Source: an uncultured delta proteobacterium (GTDB lineage: Bacteria; Myxococcota; UBA727; VGSZ01). Taken from it: DNA of 64,000 bases. The stretch's first letter is position 1. Every line of letters starts with the position of its first letter. The position numbers and the translations under genes are program-made. The stretch lies in assembly GCA_963775425.1 (NCBI GenBank), contig CAVZJB010000008.1:1-64000 (forward strand), read 5' to 3'. The notes beneath the pieces were generated by a model, which saw nothing but the letters and a program-made list of their open reading frames with translations, was not told where the DNA came from and ran no database searches. Shown in pieces: positions 37,603 to 62,248 of this stretch.

Positions 37603-39237
37603 TCACGAGGGCGGGATCTCCACGGTCCGCTCGACGGTGCGGCCCGACGCCACCTTGAGGTCGGAGAACACGTGGGTCTCGCCGCTCCTGACGACGACGA
37701 GGGTGTACGCGCCCGGCGGCAGGTACGCGTCCTGGCCGGCGGGCACGGAGACGAGCGCGTCGCCGGGTGGGATGGGGAGGGCCCCCGTCTTGTCCGGCTT
37801 TTGCGCTTTGTCGGCCTTGAAGAAGCGCACCTCGGCGGGGACGGCGACGCCTCCTTGGAACACCTGCACCACCGCGGTGCCCACGTCGAGGTTCAGGCGC
37901 ATCGAGAGGCGGGAGCCGAGGGCGAGGGAGACGTCGTGGGCCGTGACGATGTCGCCCTGCGGCGCGTGGAAGATCGCCTTGACGGACACCTTGCCCGCCG
38001 ACAACGAGAACGAAGCTTTGCCGTCGGCGTCGACGGTCTTTTTGGCCACGGGGACGTCGTTGCCGGGGGCGTCGATCTCCACCTCGATGGACCTGGAGGC
38101 GGCGCCGGGGGCGTGCCCGCCGAGGACGGTCCTGGTCTCGAGGCGCGCCGAGGTGACGTCGAGGGTGACCGCGCGCTGCTCGCCCGCGTGCACGCGCACC
38201 GTGGCCGTGGCCTTGGGCGGCGTCCCGTCGTCTCGCCGGGCGTCCTTGCGGACGGCGCCGATGACGAACGTGCCCGCCGCCACGCGCAGCACGTCGCCGA
38301 CGGCGGCGGTGTTGAACGGCGCGGGCGCGCCCGGCGTCGACAGCTCGATGTCGATCTGCGCGTCCGCCGGCGGCGCGTGGCCGTCGACGAGGACGCGCGG
38401 CCGGATCACCGCCGTGTGGTGCGCCACGTACTTCGTGGTGGCCCTCTTGGGCCGGATGACGACGTTCCTGGTCAGCACCTCGGAGAAGTCGTAGGTGTCG
38501 TCGAGCTGCGTGACGAGGTCGTAGGTGCCCGGCGGCGCCTCCCCCTTCTCCCCCGCGTGCAGCTCGATGAGCCGCGTCTTCTGTCCCGGCGCGCGCAGCG
38601 CGGCGACGCCGCCCGCCTTCCGGCCGTTGTCGCTGAGGAACACCGTGAGCGTGCCGTCGGTGGTGTCGACGGTGACGGTGCTCTTGTTCTTCGCCGCGAT
38701 GCGCGCCTCGGCGTTGCCGAACACCGGGCGCGTCGACCCCGGGTCGTCGACCTTGGCGAGCACGCGGACCTTCCCCGGGCACAGCGGGATGACCGCCTTG
38801 TCCGTGGCCGACGCCACTTCGTGGCCGCGGTCGTCGAACACCGTGATCTCCGCGCGCACCGGCGTGTCGAAGCGCAGCACGTTCACGAGCAGGAACCCCG
38901 GGTCGAGAGACACCGGGACGCTGATCTCGCCCCGCTTGGCGACGATGGCGGCGCTCTTTTTCACCGTGCCCTCGTCGCTCGGGCAGGCGACGACGGCGTC
39001 GTATTTGCCGGGCTCGAGGTTCACCTGCTTGCCGGCGTCGAGCCCGGTCTGGTCGGCGTCGGCCTCGCCGGCCCGGTAGACGTCGACGGTGCAGGCGCCG
39101 GTCCACTTGACGTCGCCCTCCTTCTTCACGTCGAAGCTCACGGCGACGGTGGGTGTGTCGTCGCCGCTCTCGACGCCGGCGGCGGGGGCGGCGCACACGA
39201 GCAGGGCGAGGGCGGCGGCGGGCTTCAGCGCGATCAT
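37603..39237 (-). CDS. Secreted hypothetical protein with repeated beta-sandwich (prealbumin-like) modules
   Basis: Signal peptide MIALKPAAALALL; repeated LEPGKYD, PPGTYDL, LPPGAYTL motifs. Confidence 0.7.
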   Translation of the reverse strand: MIALKPAAALALLVCAAPAAGVESGDDTPTVAVSFDVKKEGDVKWTGACTVDVYRAGEADADQTGLDAGKQVNLEPGKYDAVVACPSDEGTVKKSAAIVAKRGEISVPVSLDPGFLLVNVLRFDTPVRAEITVFDDRGHEVASATDKAVIPLCPGKVRVLAKVDDPGSTRPVFGNAEARIAAKNKSTVTVDTTDGTLTVFLSDNGRKAGGVAALRAPGQKTRLIELHAGEKGEAPPGTYDLVTQLDDTYDFSEVLTRNVVIRPKRATTKYVAHHTAVIRPRVLVDGHAPPADAQIDIELSTPGAPAPFNTAAVGDVLRVAAGTFVIGAVRKDARRDDGTPPKATATVRVHAGEQRAVTLDVTSARLETRTVLGGHAPGAASRSIEVEIDAPGNDVPVAKKTVDADGKASFSLSAGKVSVKAIFHAPQGDIVTAHDVSLALGSRLSMRLNLDVGTAVVQVFQGGVAVPAEVRFFKADKAQKPDKTGALPIPPGDALVSVPAGQDAYLPPGAYTLVVVRSGETHVFSDLKVASGRTVERTVEIPPS

Positions 39238-39332
39238 GTCCCGAAGCCTCCGCCCGCTGGCGCGCCGGGGGCAAGCCCGGAGCGCAGGGAACCCCGCTGA
39301 CAAGGGGCGCGCGAGACGTCAGGTTCGCGGCG

Positions 39333-41039
39333 ATGGACTTCGTCGAGGAACGCCGCGAAGGCTTGCGCTGGCTCGCGCAACTGCGCTGGTGGGCGCTCGG
39401 GGGGACGCTCGCCGGCGTCGTCGTCGCGCTCGGGCTCAACTGGACCTTCGTCGACACCAAGGCGCTGTCCGGCGGCGTCGTCGTCATGGGCCTCGTGAAC
39501 CTGGGCCTCGTGTGGCGCGTGCGCCGCGAGGCGGACGTCGGCAAAAACGAGCTCTCGCTGCACGCCACGGCGGACCTGCTCTTCCTCACCTGGCTCCTGG
39601 CGTGGTCGGGCGGGGTGACGAACCCCATCTCCTTCGCCTTCAGCTTCCACGTCGTCCTCGGCGCGCTCTTGAACGGCCGCCGCGGCGCCGTGGCCTCCAC
39701 CCTCGCCTCGCTCGCCTGCATCGCGTTCCTGTCGGTCATCGACGAGACGCACCTGCTCCCGGTGCCCGCGCTCGAGCACCCGCCGCGCACCCTGTGGGTG
39801 CTCTCCCTCGGTCTCCTCGTCGCGGGGCTCGGCTACCTCGCCCTCGTCGTCGCCGAGCGGCAGGCGGCGCAGAACCGGCGCCTCGTCGAGGAGCGCAAGG
39901 AGGCCACCAGCAGCGTCGCGCTCCTCCTCGAGAGCCTCGAGGCCTTGCAGGTCGGCCTCGACCTCGTCGGCGCCGACGGCGCCTCGCAGCTCAAAAACGA
40001 GACCGCGCGCGCCCTCGAGGGCACGCCGCAGGCGGCGGAGGCGGCGCGCTCGGTGGAGAAGATCGAAGGGGATCAGGCGGTGCTGCGCCGCTTCGCCGTC
40101 GGCGGCCAGATCGGCGAGGGCGCGCACCCGCCCGGCCAGGGCAACGAGCGCATCATCGACCTCATCGCGCTGCCGCCGTCGCAGGCGCGCCCGGCGCGCG
40201 CGCTCCTGTACGTCGACCGCACCGACGAGCTCCTCGTCGAGCAGCGCCACGTCATGCTCGAGCGCCTGGCCACGCTCGGCCGCGCCATGCAGGGCGTCGC
40301 CCACGAGCTCAACACGCCGCTCACCACCATGCAGACCCTCGGCAAGGACCTGCGCGCCGCGCTCGCGGACGCGCCCCTCGACGAGAGGCTGCGCGTCGAC
40401 GTCGAGGAGTCCCTCTCGCTCCTCATCGACGAGTCCAAGCGCTGCCGCGCCCTCACGCAGGCCCTGTTGTCCCGCGCCGACGACGGCCGCGCCGGCGCCC
40501 GCGGCGCCGCCCCGAGCCTGCTCGACGTCGCCCGCCGCGCCGTGCGCCTCGTGGCCCCCACCGAGGAGGGCGACGACGTCGACATCGACGAGGTGACCCT
40601 CGCGCTGCCGTGCCCCGTCGACGGGGATCGCGTGCTGCAGGTGGTGATGAACCTCGTGCAGAACGCCCTGCGCGCCACGGTGGAGCAGCGTGGCGACGGC
40701 CGCGGCCCCCGGGTCACCGTGCGCGCAGAGCGCGCAGAGCGCGCCGTGGTGGTGCGCATCGTCGACCGCGGCCCCGGCCTGCCCGACGAGGTGCGGGCGC
40801 GCTTGTTCGAGCCCTTCGTCACAACCCGGCCCGTCGGGGAGGGCACCGGCCTCGGGCTGTACACCTCGCAGCGCATCGCCCACGAGATCGGCGGGTCGCT
40901 CGCCATCGAGGACGCGGCCGGCGGCGGCACCGTCGCCGTGCTCACGCTCCCGGCCGGCGGCAAGGCGATCGACCGCGAACCGCCCCCGCCCGCGCCGCGC
41001 TTGGCAGGGCCCGGCGGCCCGGCTAGGAGGGCGTCATGA
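39333..41039 (+). CDS. Sensor histidine kinase with a RegB/PrrB-like membrane domain
   Basis: WLAQLRWWAL, GGVTNP, H-box GVAHELNTPL, N-box NLVQNA, DRGPG, GTGLGL. Confidence 0.88.
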   Translation: MDFVEERREGLRWLAQLRWWALGGTLAGVVVALGLNWTFVDTKALSGGVVVMGLVNLGLVWRVRREADVGKNELSLHATADLLFLTWLLAWSGGVTNPISFAFSFHVVLGALLNGRRGAVASTLASLACIAFLSVIDETHLLPVPALEHPPRTLWVLSLGLLVAGLGYLALVVAERQAAQNRRLVEERKEATSSVALLLESLEALQVGLDLVGADGASQLKNETARALEGTPQAAEAARSVEKIEGDQAVLRRFAVGGQIGEGAHPPGQGNERIIDLIALPPSQARPARALLYVDRTDELLVEQRHVMLERLATLGRAMQGVAHELNTPLTTMQTLGKDLRAALADAPLDERLRVDVEESLSLLIDESKRCRALTQALLSRADDGRAGARGAAPSLLDVARRAVRLVAPTEEGDDVDIDEVTLALPCPVDGDRVLQVVMNLVQNALRATVEQRGDGRGPRVTVRAERAERAVVVRIVDRGPGLPDEVRARLFEPFVTTRPVGEGTGLGLYTSQRIAHEIGGSLAIEDAAGGGTVAVLTLPAGGKAIDREPPPPAPRLAGPGGPARRAS

Positions 41040-42358
41040 GGGTGCTCATCGTCGACGACGATCCCGGCCTGCGGCTCGCGCTCTCCAAGGCGCTCACCCG
41101 CAAGGGCGTCGACGTCATCGATCTGTCCGGCGGCGAGCCCGCGCTCGACGCGCTCAAGACCGGCGTCGCCCGCGCCGGCCGCGTCGACGTCTGCGTGCTC
41201 GATCTCAAGATGCCCGGCATGGGCGGCCTCGAGGTCCTGCGCCGCACCCCGCACCGAAGGGTCCCGGTCGTCGTGCTCACCGGGCACGGCACGGTGCCCG
41301 ACGCCGTCGAGGCCATGCGGCTCGGCGCCCAGAACTTCCTGCAGAAGCCCATCGACGCCGACATCCTGCTCCCCGTCCTGCACCAGATGCTGAAGGACGA
41401 GCCGGCGTCGGTGTCCACCACCCTCCTCGGCGCCTCCGACGCCATGCTCTCCTTCCTCGAGAAGCTCGACCGCGCGGCGCAGTCCGAGGAGCCCGTGCTC
41501 CTCGTCGGCGAGCCCGGCACCGGCAAGGAGCTGTGCGCCCGCCGCATCCACGAGGGCAGCGCGCGCAAGCGGGGCTCCTTGATGGCGCTCAGCTCGGCGG
41601 CGATGCCGAAGGAGATGGTCGAAAGCGAGCTGTTCGGCCAGCGCCGCGGCGCCTCGGCCTCGTGGACAAACGGTGGCGGCGACACCCGCGACGGCCTGTG
41701 CGCCAAGGCCGCCGACGGCACCCTCTTCATCGACGAGATCGGCGATCTGCCGCCCGACGTGCAAGGCAAGCTCCTGCGCGCGCTCGAGGACAAGCGCTTT
41801 CGCCCCGTGGGCTCCGACGTGGAAAAGCCGTTCCGCGCGCGCCTCGTCGCCGCCACGCAGAAGGACCTCAAGGGCGCCGACGGCGTCCGCGGCGACCTCT
41901 TCTATCGCCTCGGCGTCATCCCGCTGTCGGTGCCGCCCCTGCGCGAGCGCGGCGACGACATCGTGCTCATCGCGCGCGCCTGCCTCGGGCGCAGCACGGA
42001 CCGGCAGATGTCGCTGACGCCGGAGGCCGAGGACCGCCTGCGCGACTACGCCTTCCCCGGCAACGTGCGCGAGCTCGTGAACCTCATGAAGCGGGCGGCG
42101 CTGTTCGCCCCCGAGGAGGTCGTCGACGTCGGGCTCATCGACGAGCTCCTCGCGGAGTCACCCTACGGCCAGGGCGCCGCCGCCCCCGTCGACCCCGGGC
42201 CGCGCGCGGGCCAGCGCGTGACGCTCGAGGAGCTCGAAAAGACGCACATCCGCCGGCTCCTCGACGAGCTGAAGAACGTCTCGGAGGTGGCCCGCATCGT
42301 CGGCATCGACCGCCGCACGCTGCAGCGAAAGATGGCCGCGTGGGGCTTTCGCGATTAG
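41036..42358 (+). CDS. NtrC-type response regulator (receiver, AAA+, HTH) lacking GAFTGA
   Basis: VLIVDDD, DLKMPGMGG, GEPGTGKE, TLFIDEIG, FPGNVREL, HTH NVSEVARIVGIDRRTLQRKM. Confidence 0.9.
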   Translation: MRVLIVDDDPGLRLALSKALTRKGVDVIDLSGGEPALDALKTGVARAGRVDVCVLDLKMPGMGGLEVLRRTPHRRVPVVVLTGHGTVPDAVEAMRLGAQNFLQKPIDADILLPVLHQMLKDEPASVSTTLLGASDAMLSFLEKLDRAAQSEEPVLLVGEPGTGKELCARRIHEGSARKRGSLMALSSAAMPKEMVESELFGQRRGASASWTNGGGDTRDGLCAKAADGTLFIDEIGDLPPDVQGKLLRALEDKRFRPVGSDVEKPFRARLVAATQKDLKGADGVRGDLFYRLGVIPLSVPPLRERGDDIVLIARACLGRSTDRQMSLTPEAEDRLRDYAFPGNVRELVNLMKRAALFAPEEVVDVGLIDELLAESPYGQGAAAPVDPGPRAGQRVTLEELEKTHIRRLLDELKNVSEVARIVGIDRRTLQRKMAAWGFRD

Positions 42359-42536
42359 GGCGCAACCCGCAGGTGTAGGTGCCGATGCCACAGGCAGGGG
42401 ACGGCGCGGCGGATCGAGACGCGATCGGACGGACGCGGCGGCGCGCAACAGGCGTACTTCCGCCACGCCGCCGGGGCTGAACGACAGAAGCGGCCGGCGG
42501 TGGTGGGCGCACACGGAGGTTCGCTAGCCTCTCGGT

Positions 42537-43676
42537 GTGCGCGCCGTCCTTTACTTCGGGTTCGCCGCCGTCGCCCTCGCGCCGGTGCGCGCGGGCGCGC
42601 CGAGCCACGCGGACGGGCCGGTGTGCAAGGTCGGCGAGAAGCTGCCCCCGTTGGTGCGGCGCGACCTCGTCGCGGGCGCGGGCGGCGCCGGGCGCGCCTG
42701 GGTAAGGGCGGTGCGCGACCTCGCCGAGGACCGCCTCGACGTCGACGCGCTGCCGCCCACCACGCCGATCACGGTGTGGACCGTCGGCGGCGACGTCGTC
42801 GCCTTCGAGATCGCGGACCGCTTCGCCGCCCCGGCGCAAGCGTCCGGCGGCGGCCTGCGCTGGAGCTTCGACGACGGCAGCACGCTCGACGGCCCGTTCC
42901 TCGCGCGGCCGGTGCGCTACATGGCGGTGGCCTCGCGCATCGGCGTCCGCCAGCACCCGATCACCCGGCGCATCCGCTTCCACGCCGGCACCGACTACGC
43001 CGCGCCCGTCGGGACGCCGGTGCACGCCGCCGGCGACGGCGTCGTCACCAAGTGGATGCGGAGCTGGACCGGCGGGCGCATCCTCATCATCAAGCACGAC
43101 GACGGCTACGAGACCAAGTACATGCACTTGAGCGCCCGGGCCGACGGCATCGACGAGGGCGTGCGCGTCCACGAGGGACAGCTCATCGCCTACGTCGGCA
43201 GGACCGGCCGCGTCACGGGCCCGCACCTGCACTTCGAGATCCGCGACCCGTGGCGCACGCCGCTCGACTCCGTCGTCGCGCGCTGGCCCGGCGCCGCCCG
43301 CGTCGGCGACGCCGCTCTCGAGGCGCTGCGCCTGCGCCGCGACCTCCTGCACACGTTTCTGGCGAACGGCGAGCGCGACCTCGACGACCCGCTGACGTCG
43401 CCGCCCTCCGCCGTGGACGACGCTCCGCCGGTGGACGACGACGGCGCCGGCGTCGTCCTGCCCTTCGCCCCCGTGCGCACGGCCGAGCGCCGCGCCCGGG
43501 GCCCGCGGCGCCGGCGGGTGCGCACCACGCACCCCGTCTTCGACGAGATCGACGTCACCGCGCGCGACACGCTCGCCCGCCGCGCCATCCAGCTCGCCGC
43601 CGAATTCCCCGACGACCCGATGCCTCGCCTCGGACAGCCGCCCGCTGCTGCGGCTCCGCGCGCCGAGGCGGTGTAG
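42537..43676 (+). CDS. M23 family metallopeptidase (MepM-like)
   Basis: HAGTDYAAPVGTPV, YMHLS, TGPHLHFE. Confidence 0.88.
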   Translation: MRAVLYFGFAAVALAPVRAGAPSHADGPVCKVGEKLPPLVRRDLVAGAGGAGRAWVRAVRDLAEDRLDVDALPPTTPITVWTVGGDVVAFEIADRFAAPAQASGGGLRWSFDDGSTLDGPFLARPVRYMAVASRIGVRQHPITRRIRFHAGTDYAAPVGTPVHAAGDGVVTKWMRSWTGGRILIIKHDDGYETKYMHLSARADGIDEGVRVHEGQLIAYVGRTGRVTGPHLHFEIRDPWRTPLDSVVARWPGAARVGDAALEALRLRRDLLHTFLANGERDLDDPLTSPPSAVDDAPPVDDDGAGVVLPFAPVRTAERRARGPRRRRVRTTHPVFDEIDVTARDTLARRAIQLAAEFPDDPMPRLGQPPAAAAPRAEAV

Positions 43677-43685
43677 ATTCGCCGC

Positions 43686-44042
43686 GTGACGACCAAGTCG
43701 ACGAGCGGTGAGCAAGAGAGGCGCGCGTACAAGCGCGTGCAGGCCCCGGTGTACTGCCGCCCTGCGGGGCTGGCGCTGCGCTTCCTCCAGCAAAAGCAGA
43801 AGCCGCTCGACATCTCGCTCGGCGGCATGCGCATCTACAGCGACGAGCCCGTCAAGAAGGGCACCCGCCTCGAGCTCGAGTTGTTCTTGCCCGACAACAG
43901 CAGCGTCACCTGCAAGGTCGAGGCGGTCTGGATCGTGGTGCTCCCCCCCGGCTCGCCCGCCAAGCACGACGTTGGCCTCAAGTTCATCGACATCAAGCCC
44001 GAGGACCGGGATCGCCTGGGCGCCGTGCTCGAAGACGTCTGA
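43686..44042 (+). CDS. PilZ domain protein
   Basis: ERRAYKR (RxxxR) and DISLGG (DxSxxG). Confidence 0.88.
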   Translation: MTTKSTSGEQERRAYKRVQAPVYCRPAGLALRFLQQKQKPLDISLGGMRIYSDEPVKKGTRLELELFLPDNSSVTCKVEAVWIVVLPPGSPAKHDVGLKFIDIKPEDRDRLGAVLEDV

Positions 44043-49253: not shown

Positions 49254-50471
49254 GTGACGAGCGCTCATCAGGTCCTCGAGGAGCACCTGCAAAACGGCAG
49301 GCTCGACCCCGCCGAGGCCATGGCGCGTCACATGCTCGAGGCCGACACCGAAGATCCGCTCGCGCACGTGGCGTGGGCGCGCATCTCGGCGATGCGCGGC
49401 CACCTCGACGACGGCATCAAGCGGCTCGAGCGCCTCCTCGCCGGAAACCCCAAGCAGCCGGACGCGCTCGCGTGGCTGGCGGTGCTCTGGAACGACAAGG
49501 GCGACACCGAGCGCGCGCTGCTCCTCGCCCGCCGCGCGGTCTCCCTCGGCGCGCGCGTGCCGCAAAACGACGTCATGCTCGGCGACGACGCGCTCTCCCG
49601 CGGCGTCGTCGACGAGGCGGTGCGCTACTACGACCGCGCCGCCGCGCAGGCGCCCAGGCTCGCGCCGGCGTGGATCGGGCGCGGGCGCGTGATGCGCAGC
49701 CAGGGGCAGCTCGCCGACGCCGAGGACGCCTTCGCCCGCGCCGTCGAGGTCGCGCCGCTGCGCGTGGACGCGTGGGTGAACCTCATCGAGGTGGAGCTCG
49801 AGGGCGGCGCCGACGACGCCGCCGCGGACAACCTCGCCCTCGCGCTCAAGGCGCACCCGGGCAACCGCGAGCTGCTCGCGCTCAAGGCCAACGAGGAGAA
49901 GAAGAAGGCCGACACCTACGACCCGGTCGAGGCGGCGCTCAAGGACATCCGCGACAAGATCTACCGGGGCGACACCGAGGCCGCGCTGCGCACGCTCTAT
50001 GCCGTCATCGACGAGCACCCCGGCGATCCGCGCACCTACGTCGCCGAGGCCGAGATCGCCGCGGTGGCGGGCCAGGGAGACATTCCGGCGCTGATCAACG
50101 CCCTCACGCGCATGGTGCGCGATCGGCCCACGGCGTGGGAGCCGCGCGCGGCGCTCGGCCGGCTCATGCTCCGGCCCGGCCCGATGCAGAACGTGCGCAT
50201 GGGCCTCGCCCACTGCGAGGAGGCCTGGCGCACCTCGGGCGAGCACCCGCGCGCGGGGCTGTTCCTGTTCGAGGCCTTCGCCGTCGTCGACAAGCGCGCC
50301 CTGGCGCTGGCGCTCGGGCAGAAGCTCTCCAAGGGCGAGGGGCCCGAGGCGGAGGTGGTGCGCCAGCTCCTCGGCGAGGTGCACCCGCCGGTGCCCCACA
50401 AGCCCTTCAGCAAGCCCCCGCGGCCCGAGTTCCTCGAGGGCGGCGACGACGACGACGGAAGCGGCGCCTGA
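49254..50471 (+). CDS. Tetratricopeptide repeat protein
   Basis: Multiple TPRs (AWIGRGRV..AEDAFARAVEVAP and others). Confidence 0.85.
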   Translation: MTSAHQVLEEHLQNGRLDPAEAMARHMLEADTEDPLAHVAWARISAMRGHLDDGIKRLERLLAGNPKQPDALAWLAVLWNDKGDTERALLLARRAVSLGARVPQNDVMLGDDALSRGVVDEAVRYYDRAAAQAPRLAPAWIGRGRVMRSQGQLADAEDAFARAVEVAPLRVDAWVNLIEVELEGGADDAAADNLALALKAHPGNRELLALKANEEKKKADTYDPVEAALKDIRDKIYRGDTEAALRTLYAVIDEHPGDPRTYVAEAEIAAVAGQGDIPALINALTRMVRDRPTAWEPRAALGRLMLRPGPMQNVRMGLAHCEEAWRTSGEHPRAGLFLFEAFAVVDKRALALALGQKLSKGEGPEAEVVRQLLGEVHPPVPHKPFSKPPRPEFLEGGDDDDGSGA

Positions 50472-50511
50472 GCGACACACGCGGCGAGCGTGATAGGTTC
50501 GCCAGGCCGCC

Positions 50512-51282
50512 ATGCCCCAGAAGAACCCCGACGAGGCCCGCGCCAACGACATCGCGCAGAAGAGCGAGTCGATGGCCCGTGAGCTGTCGCAAAAGCGGGA
50601 GCTGCGCATCCGTCAGGAGCGCGTGCGCCACCTGTCGTCGGACGACTCCGGCGGCGGCAGCCGCACGCGCAAGCCGGCGCCGCTCGCCGAGGACAAGACC
50701 GTGCGCGCCGAGGACGTGCGCGAGCCGCACCGCGAGCAGCGGCCGCGGTCGGCGCCCACGCAGACGGTGCCCTTCTACCCGGAGCGCCGCCCGTCGATGC
50801 TCGACGAGGTGGCCACGGAGCTCGAGGAGCTCCTGCGCGATCTGCGCGGCGGCTGGCGTCGTTGGGAGGCCGCGGACCGCATCACCTTCGTCGCCGCCTT
50901 CGCCACCCTGATCGGCGTGCTCCTGCCGTGGACCAGCGACAAGACCCACGTGTTCCAGCTCGGCATCGCCGCCGGCGGCGGGTTCCACGCGGCGCTCGCG
51001 TGCGCGGCGGTGGCGCTCCTCGTCGGGCGCGGCAAGCGCGGCGAGCGCGGCGGGCGCGCGCGCACGTCGGCGGCGCGGCGGGCGAGCTTGTGGCACCTGT
51101 TGCTCGGCGCCACGTCGACGATCCTGTGCGCCTACTTCCTCGTCATCTACGGCGCGCAGCGCTCGGCGGCGACGGGGCTCGAGATCCGCTTCGGGCTCTA
51201 CGTCACGTTGGCCGCCGGCATGGGGCTGTCCTATGGTGGCTTCGCGCGGTTCTGGAGCCGCCACGAGGGAGAGCGCGGATGA
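50512..51282 (+). CDS. Hypothetical membrane protein (charged N-terminus, 4 TM helices)
   Basis: LIGVLLPW...FGLYVTLAAG hydrophobic segments. Confidence 0.7.
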   Translation: MPQKNPDEARANDIAQKSESMARELSQKRELRIRQERVRHLSSDDSGGGSRTRKPAPLAEDKTVRAEDVREPHREQRPRSAPTQTVPFYPERRPSMLDEVATELEELLRDLRGGWRRWEAADRITFVAAFATLIGVLLPWTSDKTHVFQLGIAAGGGFHAALACAAVALLVGRGKRGERGGRARTSAARRASLWHLLLGATSTILCAYFLVIYGAQRSAATGLEIRFGLYVTLAAGMGLSYGGFARFWSRHEGERG

Positions 51283-51617
51283 GCGACGATCTCAAGGCCT
51301 TCAAGATCTCCGACCAGGTGAAAAAGCAGGTCGACCGGCCCAAGGGCGCGCCGCCCGCGGAGGCGGAGGCGCCTCAGGCGTCGGCGGGCTTCCCGCGCAT
51401 CGAGGCCCTCGTCGAGAGCGACGTCCCCGACGTCGAAGGCCTCGCCGAGCGCCAGGGCCTCCTCGAGGAGATGGCCAAGGGCAAGGCCTCCAACAAGGAC
51501 AAGGCGTCCGCCAAGAAGGCCGCCGCGGCCTACGCCAAGGCCCGCGCCCTCATCAGCTATCTGCTTGAAACAAAAAGAAAAATGACCGGCGTCGGGCCCG
51601 ATACGACAGGTGGCTGA
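51279..51617 (+). CDS. Small helical hypothetical protein
   Basis: ATG overlaps the upstream stop (ATGA); MSDDLKAFKISDQVKKQ...; strong codon bias. Confidence 0.75.
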   Translation: MSDDLKAFKISDQVKKQVDRPKGAPPAEAEAPQASAGFPRIEALVESDVPDVEGLAERQGLLEEMAKGKASNKDKASAKKAAAAYAKARALISYLLETKRKMTGVGPDTTGG

Positions 51618-51727
51618 GGAAGGATCTCGAGGGGGCGCCCGCGCAACCAGCCGTCGGGCCCAGCGATAACCCCCTTGAACGATTTCAGCACTCACCCACC
51701 GATTCTCGAACAGCGAGGGAAGACACC

Positions 51728-52261
51728 ATGACCATCAACGTGACCGGCGGCGGCAACCGTTCCATCCAGCTCGACTCGTCCAGCACCACGGTGCGCCAGT
51801 CTCCTCGCACCGACTTCGGAACGCAGGTGCGCAACGGCATCGCGACCGGCGCGGGCACCGCGGGCGCCGCCCTTGGTGTGGCCGCTCCCTTCGTCCCCGG
51901 CGCGGCGGTCGTGTCCGCGGCGGTCACCGGCGCGGCCGGCGGCGTGCAGGGCAGCGCGGGCGGCTTCGGCGGCGGCGCGGGCGGCGCGGCGGGCAGCGGC
52001 GTGGCCACCGTCGGCTCCGACGGCATCCCCCTGAACGGCCCCGGCCTGAACACGCCGACGGGCACGCAGTCCACCGGCAACAACCAGCAGGACCTCATCA
52101 ACCAGACCAAGGACATGCAGGAGATGATGGCCAGCTTCAACCTGCAGTACCTCCAGCTCCAGGAGAAGATGCAGGCGGAGAACCGCTCCTTCACCACCGT
52201 GTCCAACGTCATGAAGACCAAGCACGACACCGCGAAGTCGAGCATCTCGAACGTCCGCTGA
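51728..52261 (+). CDS. Gly-rich protein with a T3SS needle/filament-like C-terminal helical hairpin
   Basis: RBS GAGGGA; C-terminus NLQYLQLQEKMQAENRSFTTVSNVMKTKHDTAKSSISNVR resembles SctF/SctI/EspA-Bsp22 termini; own terminator. Confidence 0.65.
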   Translation: MTINVTGGGNRSIQLDSSSTTVRQSPRTDFGTQVRNGIATGAGTAGAALGVAAPFVPGAAVVSAAVTGAAGGVQGSAGGFGGGAGGAAGSGVATVGSDGIPLNGPGLNTPTGTQSTGNNQQDLINQTKDMQEMMASFNLQYLQLQEKMQAENRSFTTVSNVMKTKHDTAKSSISNVR

Positions 52262-52278
52262 TCTCTTCTGCTAGAGTG

Positions 52279-52307
52279 AGCCCGGGCAACCACCCGGGCT
52301 TTTCTCT
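52279..52307 (+). terminator. Rho-independent terminator
   Basis: agcccggg-caacca-cccgggct followed by tttctct. Confidence 0.75.
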
Positions 52308-52336
52308 ACCCGGATCGATGTAGGAGCAGGGAACAC

Positions 52337-52756
52337 ATGGAGCCGGTCGAGATCCTCAAAGGGCTGATCGAGGTTCCCCAGCCGGAGGCGGCGCTCCTCC
52401 TCGAGGCCGGCTACCTCTACATGGAGATGGGAAAGCCCAAGGACGCCGAGGACGTGTTCGTCGGCGTCTGCGCCCTGTTGCCCCAAAGCGACGTGCCGCT
52501 CGTCGCGCTCGGCAACCTCGAGTTTTCGCAGGGTCGTTTCCAACGCGCGCTCACGCACCACCAGGCGGCGCTCAAGCTGCGCCCGCAGTCGGCGCTGGCG
52601 CAGGCGCACGTGGGCGAAGCCCTGCTGTGGCTCAAGAAGGTCGACGAGGGAAAGAAGGCGCTCGAGCGCGCCATCGAGATGGAGCCGGCAGGGATGCCGG
52701 CTGCGTTTGCCAAGGCTCTCCTGGAGGCGCACGCTGCCGGAGAGCTGAACCGATAA
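52337..52756 (+). CDS. Small TPR protein, T3SS chaperone-like (SycD/YscG/SctY class)
   Basis: 139 aa, three TPRs (LLEAGYLY..AEDVF; LVALGNL..ALKLRP; AHVGEAL..AIEMEP). Confidence 0.7.
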   Translation: MEPVEILKGLIEVPQPEAALLLEAGYLYMEMGKPKDAEDVFVGVCALLPQSDVPLVALGNLEFSQGRFQRALTHHQAALKLRPQSALAQAHVGEALLWLKKVDEGKKALERAIEMEPAGMPAAFAKALLEAHAAGELNR

Positions 52757-52781
52757 GCTGGACGTAGGGGCGGAGGACACG

Positions 52782-53156
52782 ATGCGCATTGGACGAGGAG
52801 GCGGCCCCAGAGGACCCACCGGCGCCAACAACGCCGGCCCCGTCAACAAGGCCGGCTCCGCCAAGTTTGGCGGCATGGTGGGCGGCACCGCCGCCAACGG
52901 GACCGAAGAGGCCAACCGCGTCCAGAGCGCCATGATGCAGGAGCTCGCGGCGCTCGCCGCCGAGCTGCGCGCAGGCAAGGCGACCAAGGAAGAGGCCAGC
53001 CGCCGCTTCGTCGGCCTCGTCATCCGCCAGAAGTTCGGCAAGCAGAAGGGCAAGGGCGCCCAGAAGATGGAAGAGGCGGTGAGCGACCTCGTCGAGGCCG
53101 ACCCGCAGTTCGTCTCGCGCCTGCAGTCCCAGCTCAAGCGCATCGCGGGCGGCTGA
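52782..53156 (+). CDS. Hypothetical protein with a disordered Gly-rich N-terminus (possible T3SS substrate)
   Basis: RBS GGAGG; MRIGRGGGPRGPTG followed by a helical C-terminal domain. Confidence 0.75.
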   Translation: MRIGRGGGPRGPTGANNAGPVNKAGSAKFGGMVGGTAANGTEEANRVQSAMMQELAALAAELRAGKATKEEASRRFVGLVIRQKFGKQKGKGAQKMEEAVSDLVEADPQFVSRLQSQLKRIAGG

Positions 53157-53273
53157 GCGCGCGCATTGGTTCGCTGACGCTCACGAACAGCCGCGCCCTC
53201 CGGGCGCCCGGGGCGGCTGAGCGCGCGCCTTGGTTCGCTGACGCTCACGAACAGCCGCGCCCTCCGGGCGCCC
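53147..53273. repeat. Two near-identical 63-64 bp direct repeats (REP/BIME-like)
   Basis: gggcggctgagcgcgcgc(a/c)ttggttcgctgacgctcacgaacagccgcgccctccgggcgccc x2, followed by hairpin ccccggct-cgctca-agccgggg. Confidence 0.85.
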
Positions 53274-56957: not shown

Positions 56958-59267
56958 TCACCTCGCCTTCGCGAGCAGCGCAGACGCCACCGCGGCCTGG
57001 CCGAGGGAGAGGCCGCCGTCGTTGGGCGGCACGCGTCGATGCGCCAGCACCTCGAAGCCGTCGTCCTCGAGGAGCGCGCGCGCTCGCTCGCTCAAGCGGC
57101 GGTTCTGGAAGCAGCCGCCCGACAGCACCACCGTCCCCGGCGCCCCTCGGGCGCGCGCCCGCCTGCAGCCCGCGAGCACCACCGCCGCCAGCGTCTCGTG
57201 GAAGCGCGCGGCGACGACGCCGGCGTCGACGCCGGCGCGGACGTCGCGGGCGACGGCGCGCACCACGGGCCTGAGGTCGACGACGAACGGCGAGGCCGGC
57301 GCCGCCGTGGCTGCGTCGCCGAGCGCGAAGGCGTACGCAGGCGCGGCCGTGTCACCCGCCGCCTGTTCGAGCAGCACCGCGGCCTGCGCCTCCCACGTCG
57401 AGGTGACGCACAAGCCGCACAGCGACGACACCGCGTCGAACCACCGGCCGGCGCCGCTGGTGGCCGGCAGCGGGAGTCCGCGTTGCAGGAGCTCTTCCAC
57501 GCGGGTCAGGCGGTCAGCGTCGACGCCCGCGAACAAGCCCGACGCGGGCACCTCGGCGTCGTGGAGCGCGGCGAGCCCGATGCGCCACGGCTGCCGGACG
57601 GCCGCGTCGCCGCCGCACAGCGCGAGCGGCCGCAGGTGTCCGAGGCGGCGGTACGACGTGAGGTCCGCTTCGAAGATCTCGCCGCCCCACAGCGTGCCGT
57701 CGTCGCCGGCGCCGCTGCCGTCGAAGATCACGCCGATCACGGGGCCCTTGTGGTGGTGCTCGGCGAGGCAGGCGGCGACGTGCGCGTGGTGGTGTTGCAC
57801 CGGAACCCGCGGCAGGCCGAGCGCGATCGCGAAGCGCGTCGAGCGGTAGTCAGCGTGCAGGTCGTGCGCGACGGCGGCCGGCACCACCGACAAGAGGCGC
57901 TCGAGGTCCGGGACGACGTCCAGGAAGTGACTGAACGTCGGCAGGTCGGAGAGGTCGCCGATGTGTTGCGACAAGAGCGCCCGGCCGTCGCGCGCGAGGC
58001 ACACGGTGTTGTCCTGATCGCCGCCCACGGCGAGCAGCGGCGGCCCCGCGACGGGGAGCGTCACAAGCTCGGGGACGAAGCCGCGCGCGCGGCGCAGCGG
58101 GACCGGGCGCCCGTCGAAGACGCGCACCACGGAGTCATCCACGCGCCGGACGATGTCGCGGTCGTGCAAGAGGAAGGCGTCGGCGATCCCCTGCAGCCGG
58201 CGCTGCGCGTCGTCGCTGTCCGCGGCGATGGGCTCCTGCGCGGCGTTGCCGCTCGTCATCACGAGCAGGGGCGGCCCCTCGCGCGCGAGCAGCTCCTGCA
58301 GCGGCGACGGCGGGAGGAACACACCGACCTCGTCGAGCCCCGGCGCCACCGCAGGCGACAGCGGGCCGCCGGCCGCCGCCGCGACGAGGACGATGGGCCG
58401 CGCGGGGGACAGCAGCGCGCTGCGCTCGGCGTCAGTCGGGCGCGCGATGCGCTCGACCTCGATGACGTCGCGCACCATCACCGCGAACGGCTTGTCGGGC
58501 GTTCGCTTGCGCGAACGCAAGCGCGTGACGGCCTCGTCGTCGGTGGCGTCGCATGCGAGGACGAAGCCGCCGACGCCCTTGACGGCGACGATGCCGCCGG
58601 CGGCGAGCAGGCGGACGGCGGCGTCGAGCGCGTCGCCCGCCTCGAGCACCGGCCCGCCGCCGGCGACGAAGGACACGCGCGGCCCGCACTGCGGACAGGC
58701 GATGGCCTCGGCGTGGTAGCGGCGGTCCCCGGCGTTGTCGTATTCGCGCGCGCACGCGTCGCACATGGAAAACGGCGCCATGGCGGTGGCCGCGCGATCG
58801 TAGGGGAGCGCGCGCACGACGCTGTAGCGCGGGCCGCACGACGTGCACGCGATGAACGGGTGGCGGTGGTGGCGGTCCCGGGGGTCGGCGAGCTCGGCGG
58901 CGCAGGCGCTGCACGGCGCGAGGTCGGCGGGGATGGCGCACGACGACAGGTGTGTCTCGACGCCGCTCGAGCTCTGCACGATGGTGAAGGTGCTGTCGCC
59001 GCGCACGGCGACGGCGACGTGCTCGACGACGTCGACGCGCGCCGCCGCGGGCGCGCGCCGGGGGATCTCGAAGAGGAAGCGCGCGACGGCGTGCTGCGAC
59101 CCTTCCACCTCGAGGACGACGCTGCGGCCATCGTTCTTGATGCAGCCCGTGAGCTCGAGCGCGCGCGCGAGGCGGGCCATGGCGGGACGAAAGCCGACGC
59201 CCTGCACGACGCCTTCGATGCGGACGGAGCGGCGCACCACGGAGACCGACGACGGCGAAGCGTGCAT
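56958..59267 (-). CDS. hypF: Carbamoyltransferase HypF
   Basis: GVVQGVGFRP acylphosphatase domain, two CxxC-x18-CxxC zinc fingers, KGVGGF, QHHHAH, DGSGAGDDGTLWGGE, PPNDGGLSLGQ. Confidence 0.96.
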   Translation of the reverse strand: MHASPSSVSVVRRSVRIEGVVQGVGFRPAMARLARALELTGCIKNDGRSVVLEVEGSQHAVARFLFEIPRRAPAAARVDVVEHVAVAVRGDSTFTIVQSSSGVETHLSSCAIPADLAPCSACAAELADPRDRHHRHPFIACTSCGPRYSVVRALPYDRAATAMAPFSMCDACAREYDNAGDRRYHAEAIACPQCGPRVSFVAGGGPVLEAGDALDAAVRLLAAGGIVAVKGVGGFVLACDATDDEAVTRLRSRKRTPDKPFAVMVRDVIEVERIARPTDAERSALLSPARPIVLVAAAAGGPLSPAVAPGLDEVGVFLPPSPLQELLAREGPPLLVMTSGNAAQEPIAADSDDAQRRLQGIADAFLLHDRDIVRRVDDSVVRVFDGRPVPLRRARGFVPELVTLPVAGPPLLAVGGDQDNTVCLARDGRALLSQHIGDLSDLPTFSHFLDVVPDLERLLSVVPAAVAHDLHADYRSTRFAIALGLPRVPVQHHHAHVAACLAEHHHKGPVIGVIFDGSGAGDDGTLWGGEIFEADLTSYRRLGHLRPLALCGGDAAVRQPWRIGLAALHDAEVPASGLFAGVDADRLTRVEELLQRGLPLPATSGAGRWFDAVSSLCGLCVTSTWEAQAAVLLEQAAGDTAAPAYAFALGDAATAAPASPFVVDLRPVVRAVARDVRAGVDAGVVAARFHETLAAVVLAGCRRARARGAPGTVVLSGGCFQNRRLSERARALLEDDGFEVLAHRRVPPNDGGLSLGQAAVASALLAKAR

Positions 59268-59387
59268 GGGAGAGGCCTTAAGAAACCCCGTCGTCGCCGC
59301 CAGACAATGAAAGCGTGCGATCCGCGCTCGTCGACGACGATCGTCCGGTCAGCGTGCGGATCACGTGGCGGTGCATAGGACAACGCG

Positions 59388-59544
59388 ATGAACAAGCTCG
59401 CGTTGATGCAGAGCCCGGTGGCCACCGTCGAAGCCGACGCGCCGCGCGCGGAGGTCCTCGTCGTGCACCTGCGGCAGCTTCGACGTCGAGGTGGTCGTCG
59501 GTGAGGATCTCACCCTGTTGGAGGTGGAGGTGCGCGATGTGTGA
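59388..59544 (+). pseudogene. hypA: hypA remnant with an internal deletion and frameshift
   Basis: N-terminal MNKLALMQSPVATVEADAPRAEVLVVHLR joined out of frame to C-terminal CTCGSFDVEVVVGEDLTLLEVEVRDV*, overlapping the hypB start. Confidence 0.75.
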
Positions 59545-60319
59545 GACCTGCGCTTGCATTCGCCGGACGCCGAACAGCGGTCAACTGCGCGGCCACGCTC
59601 AGCCGCACGCCGCCATTCGCGGGCCCGCGCAGGGGACGCGCTCGATGCGGCTGGCCCTCGACCTCGTCGACAAGAGCGCGCGCCTCGGCGCCCTCGCGCG
59701 GGCGCGTATGGAGGAGCGCGGCGTCCACGCGCTCAACCTCATCGGCGCTCCAGGCGCCGGCAAGACCGCGCTGCTCGAGGCGACGCTGGCGCGGCTGCGT
59801 GACGTGCCCGCCGCCGTCCTCGAGGGCGACCAGCAGACCGACCTCGACGCCGCGCGCATCCGCGCCACCGGCGTCCCCGTCCACCGGATCAACACGGGCG
59901 GCGCGTGCCACCTCGACCCCCACATGATCATCGACGCGCTCAACCGGATGACGCTGCCCCGGCGCACGCTGCTCTTCGTCGAAAACGTCGGCAACCTCGC
60001 CTGTCCGGCGCTGTTCGACATCGGAGAGCGGGCGAAGGTGGTGGTGATGAGCGTGACCGAGGGCGAGGACACGCCGCTCAAGCACCCACAGGTGTTCGCG
60101 GCGTCGGAGGCGCTGGTGCTGACCAAGGTCGACCTGCTGCCGCACCTGCCGTTCGACGTCGAGCGCTGCGTCGCGCAAGCGCTTCAGGTGAATCGCTCGC
60201 TCAAGGTGTTCTTGACGTCTGCGACCACCGGCGAAGGCGTGGCGCACTGGTGCCGCTTCGTGCGCGGCTTCGCTGAGCCGCGCGTGTCGCAGGAGGCGGA
60301 GTGGCCGACGCTGTCGTGA
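59537..60319 (+). CDS. hypB: Hydrogenase nickel incorporation GTPase HypB
   Basis: MCETCAC, GAPGAGKTALLE, EGDQ, CHLD, ENVGNLACP, SVTEGED, TKVD. Confidence 0.92.
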   Translation: MCETCACIRRTPNSGQLRGHAQPHAAIRGPAQGTRSMRLALDLVDKSARLGALARARMEERGVHALNLIGAPGAGKTALLEATLARLRDVPAAVLEGDQQTDLDAARIRATGVPVHRINTGGACHLDPHMIIDALNRMTLPRRTLLFVENVGNLACPALFDIGERAKVVVMSVTEGEDTPLKHPQVFAASEALVLTKVDLLPHLPFDVERCVAQALQVNRSLKVFLTSATTGEGVAHWCRFVRGFAEPRVSQEAEWPTLS

Positions 60320-60386
60320 TCGACGAGTTGGGGACGAAAGCGATCGCCGCGCTGCGGGAGCGCGAGAGAGAAATCGGGGGCTGAAG

Positions 60387-61712
60387 ATGAGCTTCGAGCG
60401 CGCGCAGAAGATCGCCGACGCGGTCCTTCTGGAGGGATACCTCCTGTATCCGTACCGGCCGTCGACGAAGAACGACCACCGCTTCACCTTCGGTGTGGTG
60501 GCGCCGCGCGCGTTCAGCGAGGCCGGCGGTGGGGAGCGCTGGTCGCTGCAGACGGAGCTCCTGCTCCAGCCGCCGGGGGTGACCGGCGCCGATGTCGTGT
60601 GGCTGCGCCTGCGCCACCTGCAGATGCAGCGGCGCACCGTGGAGGCGGCGCTCCCCGAGGGCTTCGTCGAGGTGTCGTCGCTCGACGCCGCCGGCGTGCT
60701 TCACGTGCCGTTCGACGAGGCCGTGCTGTGCGAGAGCGACCTCGTCATTCGCGTCGACGACGCGCTGTCTCCCGTGGGCATCGAGCTCGAGTTCGGCGTG
60801 GAGGCGGCGCGCACCGAGGAGATGGTCGCGGCGAATGGCGTCGTCCTCGGCCGCATCGTGCGGGAGCGCGAGGCCATCACCGGCTGTGTGCATCTCCAGG
60901 CGGAGGAGGTCCCCGCCGGGCGCCCGCTGTTGCGCATGACGCTGCGCGTGGAGAACCACACGCCGTGGCTCGTCGGCTCCGTGCGCCGCGACCGCGCGCT
61001 GCGCAAGAGCCTCTTGTCGGCGCACTTGCTCTTGTGGGCGCCGACGACGTCCTTCGTCTCGTCGGCGGAGCCACCCGGCTGGGCCGCGCGCGCGGCGTCG
61101 GCGTGCAAGAGCGACGGCCTGTACCCCGTGCTCGTCGGCGAGCGCGACGACCTGTTGCTCGCCACGCCCATCATGCTGCCCGACCGCCCGCAGCTCGCGC
61201 TCGAGAGCCCCGGCGACCTCTCCGACGCCACCGAGATCGACGAGCTGCTGGCGCTGCGCGTGCGCACGCTCACCGACCACGACAAGCGCCTGGCCCGTGC
61301 GACCGATCCGCGCGCAGCCCGCATCATCGACCACGTCGCCGCGCTCGACGACGCCCGGCTCGAGCGGCTCCACGACGCGCGGCAGGCACCGGGCGTCGAC
61401 AGCGGGCCGCCCACGGTCCCGCAGAGGGCGGCGACGGTGGGCGGCGCGCGGGTGCCGCCCGAGCTGCAGCCGGGGAGGCACGTGCGGCTGCGCCCCGGCC
61501 TCCACCGCGCCGACGCGCAGGACGCCCGGTACGCAGGGAGGACGGCGACCGTGGAGCGGGTGATGCAGGACGGGGACGGCAACGTGCTCCTCGCTGTCAC
61601 CCTCGACGACGACCCCGCGGGGATCGAGCAGCGCTTCCGCAGACAATTCCACACCTGTCGCATCGATGAAGTCGAGCCGATCGAGCTTGGCGGCCCGGAG
61701 GTGGTCCCATGA
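60387..61712 (+). CDS. Conserved hydrogenase-cluster accessory protein (group 1h/actinobacterial-type)
   Basis: ADAVLLEGYLLYPYR, PIMLPDRPQLALESPGDLSDATEIDELLALRVRTLTD, C-terminal RVRLRP..DAQD..LAVTLDDDP; recognised from memory of such clusters. Confidence 0.7.
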   Translation: MSFERAQKIADAVLLEGYLLYPYRPSTKNDHRFTFGVVAPRAFSEAGGGERWSLQTELLLQPPGVTGADVVWLRLRHLQMQRRTVEAALPEGFVEVSSLDAAGVLHVPFDEAVLCESDLVIRVDDALSPVGIELEFGVEAARTEEMVAANGVVLGRIVREREAITGCVHLQAEEVPAGRPLLRMTLRVENHTPWLVGSVRRDRALRKSLLSAHLLLWAPTTSFVSSAEPPGWAARAASACKSDGLYPVLVGERDDLLLATPIMLPDRPQLALESPGDLSDATEIDELLALRVRTLTDHDKRLARATDPRAARIIDHVAALDDARLERLHDARQAPGVDSGPPTVPQRAATVGGARVPPELQPGRHVRLRPGLHRADAQDARYAGRTATVERVMQDGDGNVLLAVTLDDDPAGIEQRFRRQFHTCRIDEVEPIELGGPEVVP

Positions 61713-62248
61713 CGGAGCGCGTGCTCGTGGCCGGAATCGGCAACGTGTTCTTTCGTGACGACGGCTTCGGCGTGGAGCTCGCCTGGCGGCTGGCGCCGTG
61801 GAAGGAGGGCGGCGTCGCGGTCGTCGACTACGGCATCCGCGAGCTCCACCTCGCCTACGACCTGCTCGAGCCGTGGGACCTCCTCGTCATCCTCGACGCC
61901 ACGCCGCGAGGGGGGCCGCCCGGGACGCTCTACGCCATCGAGCCGAACGTCGACGCCGCGCGGCCCTCGGACGCCGTCGGCGCCGCCGCCCACGGCAACG
62001 ACCTGGCGTCGGTGTTCACGGCCGCGCGCGGGCTCGGCGCCGACATCCCGCGGGCGCTCGTCATCGGCTGCGAGCCCGCCGACGTCGGCGCCGGCATCGG
62101 CCTGAGCCCGGTCGTCGACAAGGTGATGCCGTCCGCCGTGGAGCTCGTGCACAGCGTGGTGGATTTCAACGCGGCCGCTCCATCCGGTCGCAAAGGGCGG
62201 CGGGGATTTTGCCCCCGTGATCCCGCGCGTGGTATCGAGACGGGGTGA
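61709..62248 (+). CDS. Hydrogenase maturation protease (HyaD/HybD family)
   Basis: VLVAGIGNVFFRDDGFG, VVDYGIR, ILDA, AHG, VIGCEP. Confidence 0.9.
   Translation: MTERVLVAGIGNVFFRDDGFGVELAWRLAPWKEGGVAVVDYGIRELHLAYDLLEPWDLLVILDATPRGGPPGTLYAIEPNVDAARPSDAVGAAAHGNDLASVFTAARGLGADIPRALVIGCEPADVGAGIGLSPVVDKVMPSAVELVHSVVDFNAAAPSGRKGRRGFCPRDPARGIETG

Follow-up and report, generated by a model that had tools for sequence, protein, structure and literature searches.

The closest described relatives of the system considered here are the type III secretion systems (T3SSs) of myxobacteria that are non-flagellar (NF-T3SSs). The Myxococcus xanthus system termed T3SS* (mxan_2434-2464) is described as required for prey lysis. 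In the sections of PMC12075869, PMC10433427 and PMC10849154 that deal with its genes, homologues of the secretin, needle and translocon are reported as absent, and SctI and several LcrH homologues are noted in the cluster (PMC10433427). For the basal "Myxo" NF-T3SS group, the relevant passage of Abby and Rocha distinguishes long and short locus variants, and holds that the needle subunit SctF, if present, should have been found and was probably lost (PMC3459982). In injectisomes, according to excerpts of PMC9426511, needle chaperones hold the C-terminal region of the needle subunit, and co-chaperone genes sit upstream of needle genes. Here we describe a gene module at positions 49254-53156 of a 64,000-nucleotide stretch of DNA (the window) from an uncultured delta proteobacterium of the Myxococcota (GenBank assembly GCA_963775425.1, contig CAVZJB010000008.1). 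We consider it moderately likely that a 177-amino-acid (aa) protein of this module, called X, is a divergent relative of SctF, extended at its N-terminus, and serves the myxobacterial NF-T3SS, and that the adjacent tetratricopeptide-repeat (TPR) protein is its chaperone. This reading builds on gene order, co-occurrence with SctJ, a profile match to needle subunits and the scattered T3SS genes of the window's genome.

One genome per species was scanned for homologues of X, which yielded 80 loci. Eighteen of these, in which the C-terminal domain of X comes after a signal- or lipoprotein-like N-terminus (class B), were set aside, leaving 62 class A loci. T3SS core genes are present in the fetched flank of 23 of the 62, always 3' of the X homologue and on the same strand, such that X lies 0.4-3.9 kb upstream of sctJ. 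In a short form (nine loci), X is followed by a gap of 0.4-0.6 kb that accommodates an SctI-like gene, then by SctJ and, where the flank reaches, by SctQ, SctR, SctS or SctV. In a long form (14 loci), the TPR gene and additional genes separate X from SctJ, which lies at 2.4-3.9 kb; SctN is found at 5.2-6.9 kb in 10 of these loci and SctQ near 9 kb in five. The gene just 5' of sctJ weakly resembles the Pfam family T3SS_basalb_I, with E-values of 0.0091 in Anaeromyxobacter soli (locus L071) and 0.016 in Corallococcus coralloides (L064). Taken together, the loci show the arrangement small helical gene, X, TPR gene, in some cases a gene for a 131-aa protein, SctI-like gene and sctJ. It parallels the injectisome order of co-chaperone, needle, chaperone, rod and SctJ, which is seen in the annotation of pCP301 (mxiG-H-I-J) and is also given in the part of PMC9426511 that treats these operons. 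In both locus types, the place taken by X homologues, ahead of the sctI-like gene and sctJ, is the one that sctF has in injectisomes. Another 19 class A loci resemble the window in that no core gene is present although each flank extends to 5 kb or more.

The distribution of X also follows that of SctJ. Among 201 Myxococcota genomes, the X profile (E ≤ 0.001) finds a homologue in 172, and the SctJ of the window's genome (E ≤ 1e-10) finds one in 164. When the genomes are tabulated by hand, 163 have both, nine have X only (in three of which the X matches are near E 1e-4), one has SctJ only and 28 have neither. The 163 include an unpublished genome (G189), without which the figure is 162 of 200; no test statistic is given, because related genomes are not independent. 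In one well-sampled Myxococcota family, many genomes have both genes in duplicate, each X lying next to an sctJ on the same contig (for example, G146, G144 and G139); the X/sctJ pairs of G146 are at 2964963/2967810 and 2285267/2286212 of its contig 1. A flagellar role for X was considered, as the window's genome has a flagellar cluster, and was rejected because X occurs twice per genome, each time beside sctJ, in this well-sampled family (55 of 60 positive).

The genome from which the window derives (8.26 Mb, 18 contigs) carries a single copy of X and two FHIPEP genes. One FHIPEP gene lies within a full flagellar cluster at 326000-380000 of contig C9, which encodes FlhA, FlhF, FliA, flagellin, FliD, FliS, FlgK, FlgM, FlgH, FlbD, MotA/B, FliF and FliP. 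The other is a non-flagellar SctV gene that stands alone among polysaccharide genes at C4:94355-96505, far from other sct genes; an amino-acid kinase gene flanks it on one side, and epimerase and Wzm/Wzt-type ABC transporter genes on the other. Contig C9 further carries SctQ, a FliO-like gene, SctR, SctS and SctT at 110-115 kb, a YscO-like gene at 116.7-117.2 kb, SctN with a protein that has two forkhead-associated (FHA) domains at 119-123 kb, SctJ at 218 kb and SctL at 230.5 kb. An SctI-like gene resides on C14. The non-flagellar T3SS of this organism is scattered over at least three contigs (C4, C9 and C14) besides that of the window. The two-FHA protein, which has 734 aa and is encoded at C9:120467-122671 adjoining sctN, may be the SctD-like or a signalling component of this T3SS.

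The module itself has the following features.

49254-50471, + strand: TPR protein of 405 aa (Pfam TPR_14, 5.6e-19), whose membership in the module is uncertain
50512-51282, + strand: predicted membrane protein of 256 aa, with hydrophobic stretches (19-residue windows that start near residues 120-124, 150-154 and 193-197)
51279-51617, + strand: small helical protein of 112 aa, directly upstream of X
51715-51722, + strand: Shine-Dalgarno-like sequence GAGGGAAG, 5 nucleotides 5' of the ATG of X, read by eye
51728-52261, + strand: protein X, 177 aa, with a needle-like C-terminal end
52280-52299, + strand: terminator-like hairpin GCCCGGG/CCCGGGC (7-bp GC stem, 6-nucleotide loop), with a T-rich tail to 52307
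52337-52756, + strand: three-TPR protein of 139 aa (Pfam TPR_1, 6.6e-12), predicted chaperone of X
52782-53156, + strand: protein of 124 aa with a Gly-rich N-terminus and a helical C-terminus, no Pfam or NCBIfam match

The earlier note on this DNA, which a model made from the sequence, described these six open reading frames (ORFs) and the end of X correctly. It also ascribed to X a ribosome-binding site and a terminator of its own. Both can be seen by eye, as GAGGGAAG before the gene and as the hairpin after its stop, which leads into TTTTCTCT; the automatic terminator scan does not list this hairpin. Its remark that no export apparatus is nearby holds for the window, since none of the 49 ORFs scanned (8 + 41) belongs to a T3SS core family. 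The note went on to propose a dispersed needle- or filament-type module for a T3SS encoded elsewhere, and recommended a check of co-occurrence and synteny. Given the scattered sct genes, the 163 of 201 genomes with both X and SctJ, the 23 of 62 loci upstream of sctJ and the predicted contact between X and the TPR protein described below, the view that X, together with its TPR partner, belongs to the myxobacterial NF-T3SS as a detached component has been largely borne out.

Pfam and NCBIfam scans of the six proteins returned TPR matches only; the 256-aa protein has no family above cut-off in either, and the 112-aa protein has no match in either. Conservation of the neighbors is uneven. By tblastn, a homologue of the 405-aa protein is beside the module at only two of the 80 loci (L019 and L021), and homologues of the 256-aa protein are upstream of it at 12 of the 80, one of them on the opposite strand and all in close relatives. 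The 112-aa protein has a homologue immediately 5' of X in 22 of the 62 class A loci, and Corallococcus has a 103-aa ORF in this place; by analogy with injectisome operons, it is a candidate co-chaperone in the SctE slot. The 124-aa gene comes after the TPR gene in 24 of the 62 loci, and the corresponding slot in Corallococcus holds a 131-aa ORF. Longer ORFs on the antisense strand, at 51685-52293 (202 aa) and 52271-53248 (325 aa), cover the X, TPR and 124-aa genes, and a length-based gene caller prefers them; we treat them as shadow ORFs of high-GC DNA. The stretch 52000-52499, which spans the C-terminal domain of X and the intergenic hairpin, has a G+C content of 0.63, compared with 0.70-0.75 around it.

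X belongs to a sizable family. Searches found 711 relatives at E ≤ 0.001 in a 90%-clustered collection, and 1444 representatives in a 50%-clustered library, 591 of them at E ≤ 1e-10; all relatives that bear any name are "hypothetical". The protein consists of a Ser/Thr-rich N-terminus, a Gly/Ala-rich hydrophobic segment at approximately residues 37-75, a Gly-rich linker and a 58-residue C-terminal helix. In the family alignment, residues 1-70 and 120-177 are strongly conserved. A conserved motif of approximately R-Q-x-P-x-T-D-F-G is found near the N-terminus, and the hydrophobic stretch, whose hydropathy peaks at 1.86 in the 19-residue window from residue 48, includes an invariant A-A-P-F-V-P-G turn. 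The linker is variable, and the last ~58 residues are very conserved and always form the end of the protein. An AlphaFold2 model built with 71 sequences predicts a single long helix at residues 119-176, where the predicted local distance difference test (pLDDT) score is 71-90 by block.

It is in this C-terminal helix that X resembles needle subunits. The needle alignment used for comparison consists of 20 MxiH/PrgI-type proteins, each at least 62% identical to MxiH; it is confined to this subfamily, and YscF, EscF, CdsF, SctI, EspA and Bsp22 are outside it. The hhalign program aligns the X family with the needle profile over 34 columns with the C-termini flush (P 9.6e-4, probability 22%), and aligns the T3SS-linked subset of X in the same register, also over 34 columns (P 7.9e-4). 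None of 200 column-shuffled needle profiles reaches the real score of 24.9 (shuffled mean 11.7, standard deviation 2.5, maximum 23.1), and the reversed profile scores 12.5. In this register, the most conserved residues of X, namely S159, N160, K163, D167, N175 and R177, correspond to the invariant S, N, K, D, N and R of needles.

Family-level searches yield fainter signals of the same kind. The only Pfam match of the Corallococcus homologue is to PF09392 (T3SS_needle_F), with residues 128-186 on positions 16-71 of 71 (E 0.0026; 18.3 bits, compared with a curated cut-off of 29.4 bits). Among 71 family members, five match PF09392 (best E 0.023), nine match HrpA_pilin (best E 0.0014) and two match HrpF, all below threshold; the commonest weak match, in 23 of the 71, is to an unrelated helical-bundle domain. 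A search of the ESM Atlas returned unnamed Myxococcota clusters and one neighboring cluster in which 11% of the 63 members carry PF09392. Taken from these alignments, the likeness of X to needles appears weak but consistent, as an above-chance profile match in the exact C-terminal register.

The second component is the 139-aa TPR protein, whose gene follows X in 46 of the 62 class A loci. Its NCBIfam matches are LcrH_SycD (TIGR02552; 2.9e-9, 36.8 bits over positions 8-117 of 136, with a curated cut-off of 104.8), SctY (1.2e-6) and CdsG (2e-6), all of which are below cut-off, and the YscG family of Pfam is not matched at E ≤ 1. The AlphaFold2 model comprises seven helices (pLDDT 95.8). In a Foldseek search with this model, SycD is matched with template-modeling (TM) scores of 0.72/0.75, and the best natural structures of the same size are SycD, PcrH, IpgC and AcrH (TM 0.67-0.75). 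Among PDB sequences, the TPR profile picked up nothing but generic and designed TPRs. Prediction of a complex of X with the TPR protein, by using alignments of both, gave a score of 0.68, compared with 0.06 for the best of three controls; runs agreed on at least 100% of contacts, and the pLDDT of the partners was at least 53. In the predicted interface, residues 153-177 of X, within the C-terminal helix, lie in the TPR groove. The mark for such scores was attained by 58 of 80 solved complexes and two of 110 mismatched pairs, counts that apply only roughly to X and the TPR protein because their own alignments were used. The TPR protein is predicted from this model to be a chaperone that grips the C-terminal helix of X, in agreement with the role that the earlier note had assigned to it.

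Several properties of the two proteins, and the occurrence of the C-terminal domain elsewhere, weigh against X as an SctF relative. X matches no Pfam or NCBIfam family, and no needle, rod or filament family at E ≤ 1. Its hhalign probability with needles is only 22-25%, and every match to PF09392 or another needle family among its relatives is below the curated cut-off. When PDB sequences were compared with the X family profile, three chance-level matches and no needle protein were found at E ≤ 10. X is twice as long as a needle subunit, bears a Gly/Ala-rich N-terminal extension of 118 residues, and is modeled with low confidence and no hairpin outside residues 119-176. Foldseek found no matches to this model at E ≤ 10, a result that is uninformative because a lone helix is not searchable by fold. 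On the needle likeness claimed in the earlier note the outcome is mixed: the profile alignment is above chance, and the family matches are all sub-threshold. The TPR protein has the fold of the translocator chaperones SycD, PcrH and IpgC, with generic TPRs scoring equally, and no needle chaperone of the YscG/PscG type is among the Foldseek matches listed for it. Since needle-chaperone complexes have already been solved, the score of the predicted complex may reflect likeness to them rather than prove binding. Finally, in the window's genome the module adjoins no T3SS gene.

The class B proteins add further points of this kind. A profile of the C-terminal domain is matched by 148 of the best 150 representatives, and the myxobacterial N-terminal profile by only 78; among the other 72, 28 begin with a signal-peptide-like segment. 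Class B proteins begin with a signal- or lipoprotein-like segment, continue with a coiled coil and end in the 58-residue C-terminal domain that X also has; they belong to no Pfam family. They are found in Bacteroidota (Chitinophagaceae and Saprospiraceae), Acidobacteriota, Armatimonadota (Chthonomonadales), Chloroflexota (Chloroflexia) and a Limnohabitans metagenome-assembled genome, at loci that include L085:9671-10186, L070, L072, L076, L073, L098, L092, L089 and others. Their genes stand alone with no conserved neighbors, and an FHIPEP gene was not found in four of the five class B genomes checked. The class B domains are identical to that of the window at 38-42 of 58 positions, compared with 25 of 58 for the T3SS-linked copy of Corallococcus and 32 of 58 for that of Anaeromyxobacter; in sequence, class B copies are the closer ones. 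The earlier note had reasoned that homologues mostly in genomes lacking T3SS genes would speak against its proposal. On this point, about half of the best 150 lack the myxobacterial N-terminus and four of the five non-myxobacterial genomes checked lack FHIPEP; within Myxococcota, X tracks SctJ. Some Myxococcota proteins of 245-278 aa (L060:3388-4224, P0154 and P0169) combine a long non-signal N-terminus with a class B-form C-terminal domain and are possible intermediates between classes A and B.

The spread of class B lowers confidence that the domain works solely as a needle-type polymerizing helix, and is the main support for rival readings. X might not be a T3SS substrate at all, which we regard as a minor possibility: the C-terminal domain would be a coiled-coil module of general use in the periplasm or envelope, of the kind found in the Sec-exported class B proteins, and a membrane-anchored version in Myxococcota would merely lie beside the T3SS basal body or be accessory to it. 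The excess of C-terminal over N-terminal profile matches, the signal-peptide-like starts, the solitary class B genes in genomes that mostly have no detected FHIPEP, and the nearness of their domains to that of the window are all in keeping with such a module, and the hydrophobic segment of X could serve as the anchor. However, a conserved cytoplasmic TPR partner that is predicted to cap the helix is hard to fit to a Sec-independent membrane protein. The fixed position upstream of the sctI-like gene and sctJ in two cluster types, the close tracking of SctJ by the presence or absence of X, and the above-chance needle profile match likewise argue against this reading.

Linkage to the T3SS would be equally expected if X were a translocator-like or pore-forming substrate, kept soluble by a class II (LcrH/SycD-type) TPR chaperone and, after export by the T3SS, inserted into the outer membrane of the producer or into a prey membrane. 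LcrH_SycD is the best NCBIfam match of the TPR protein, class II chaperones are its best same-size natural structures, several LcrH homologues are noted in the portion of PMC10433427 on the M. xanthus cluster, and X has a conserved hydrophobic Gly/Ala-rich segment. We nonetheless judge this reading rather unlikely. The predicted contact places the C-terminal helix of X in the groove, not an N-terminal extended peptide; needle proteins provide the only above-chance sequence likeness of X; the gene is in the sctF slot; and X is far shorter than the product of ipaC (pCP301, ~1.1 kb), the sole translocator gene seen. The notion that the X ORF is a chance open frame, or that an antisense ORF is the real gene, draws on the greater length of the overlapping antisense ORFs and on their G+C content at third codon positions (GC3), 0.90 for the 202-aa and 0.81 for the 325-aa ORF. 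This explanation has a negligible chance of being correct and is already refuted by conservation, given the 711 homologues with conserved ends. The GC3 of X is 0.96 in the + frame, and the Shine-Dalgarno-like site, the hairpin and the conserved gene order are all on the + strand.

If X is an SctF relative, a pathway can be proposed in which its export, its polymerization and the role of its N-terminal part are conjectural. In the cytoplasm, the TPR protein would cap the last ~25 residues of X, a helix that would otherwise self-assemble, and the upstream 112-aa protein may assist. The export apparatus encoded elsewhere (SctRST, SctV, SctN, SctQ, SctJ, SctL, and the SctO-like and SctI-like proteins) would export X as an early substrate. 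X would then assemble by means of its C-terminal helix atop the SctI-like rod, with its Gly/Ala-rich N-terminal part exposed on the outside, from where it might touch or penetrate a membrane. The product may be a needle or a shorter stub within the periplasm, or X may form a piece that inserts into a membrane. A bolder and doubtful extension is that the "needle-less" T3SS of the earliest-branching Myxococcota has kept its needle, as a filament or stub of X whose N-terminal domain, on the outside, penetrates membranes and replaces both secretin and translocon. It is much less likely that the class B helices are exaptations of the polymerizing helix, or prey-side caps against a predator filament.

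Because T3SS* has been described without needle, secretin and translocon, the exit route of its substrates is an open question, for which X, a conserved protein with needle likeness whose gene takes the place of sctF in long and short loci alike and comes with that of a putative chaperone, is a concrete candidate. X is amenable to deletion, tagging and imaging in a non-pathogen that is experimentally tractable. It also bears on the evolution of injectisomes from flagella, and the presence of its C-terminal domain in phyla without T3SSs may point to a second use of the needle-type helix. A detached, probably SctF-like T3SS module is not described in the literature searched. In full texts, Myxococc and SctF occur together only in PMC3459982, an earlier annotation of X within mxan_2434-2464 being possible, and no myxobacterial paper is among the matches listed for needle-protein names.

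Other parts of the window contain genes of different kinds. Upstream on the same strand, 39153-44042 encodes a histidine kinase, a sigma-54-dependent response regulator, an M23 peptidase and a PilZ protein. A planctomycete-type pair, consisting of a DUF1552 (HXXSHH) protein and a multi-domain DUF1585/1587/1588/1592/1595 protein, is on the - strand at 28838-32394. Just 3' of the module, at 56958-62248, are the hydrogenase maturation genes for HypF, a HypB/CobW-type GTPase and a HycI-type protease.

Among known proteins, X is best compared with SctF (MxiH, PrgI, YscF and PscF; PF09392). In both, the C-terminal helix runs to the last residue, and X shares with MxiH/PrgI, in the hhalign register, the pattern S-N-x-x-K-x-x-x-D ... 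I-x-N-x-R. X relatives also share the gene slot of SctF, unlike the detached module of the window, and the TPR partner is likewise predicted to hold the C-terminal helix. SctF differs in being a helix-turn-helix hairpin of ~80 aa (about 70-90), whereas X has no detected N-terminal helix or hairpin, carries its long Gly/Ala-rich extension and scores below the PF09392 cut-off; moreover, no secretin is reported for the myxobacterial system in the pertinent parts of PMC3459982 and PMC10433427. The HrpA pilin and the EspA/Bsp22 filaments are, like X, longer than needles, and are secreted by T3SSs, and nine of the 71 X-family members weakly match HrpA_pilin. They differ in that X has no match above any cut-off and that their plant- or animal-directed systems have secretins, which the myxobacterial one is not reported to have; EspA and Bsp22 were not compared directly.

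The TPR protein resembles the chaperones YscG, PscG, AscG and CdsG, which act with YscE-type co-chaperones, in its small size, its seven TPR-like helices and the place of its gene immediately after that of the subunit. It is predicted to bind the C-terminal region of X, the mode of binding given for needle chaperones in PMC9426511, and a weak CdsG match is found. The window's protein differs in having no YscG Pfam match and in its closest folds, which are class II chaperones and generic TPRs. At the level of the whole system, M. xanthus T3SS* has its genes clustered, whereas the window's genome spreads them over several contigs, and the papers on T3SS*, in the parts cited, report needle, secretin and translocon as lacking and SctF as lost. 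The system to which X is assigned is of the same kind as T3SS* and the "Myxo" NF-T3SS: the window's genome has SctJ, N, Q, R, S, T, V and L with O-like and I-like genes, and the X loci show long and short variants as the passage in PMC3459982 describes for that group.

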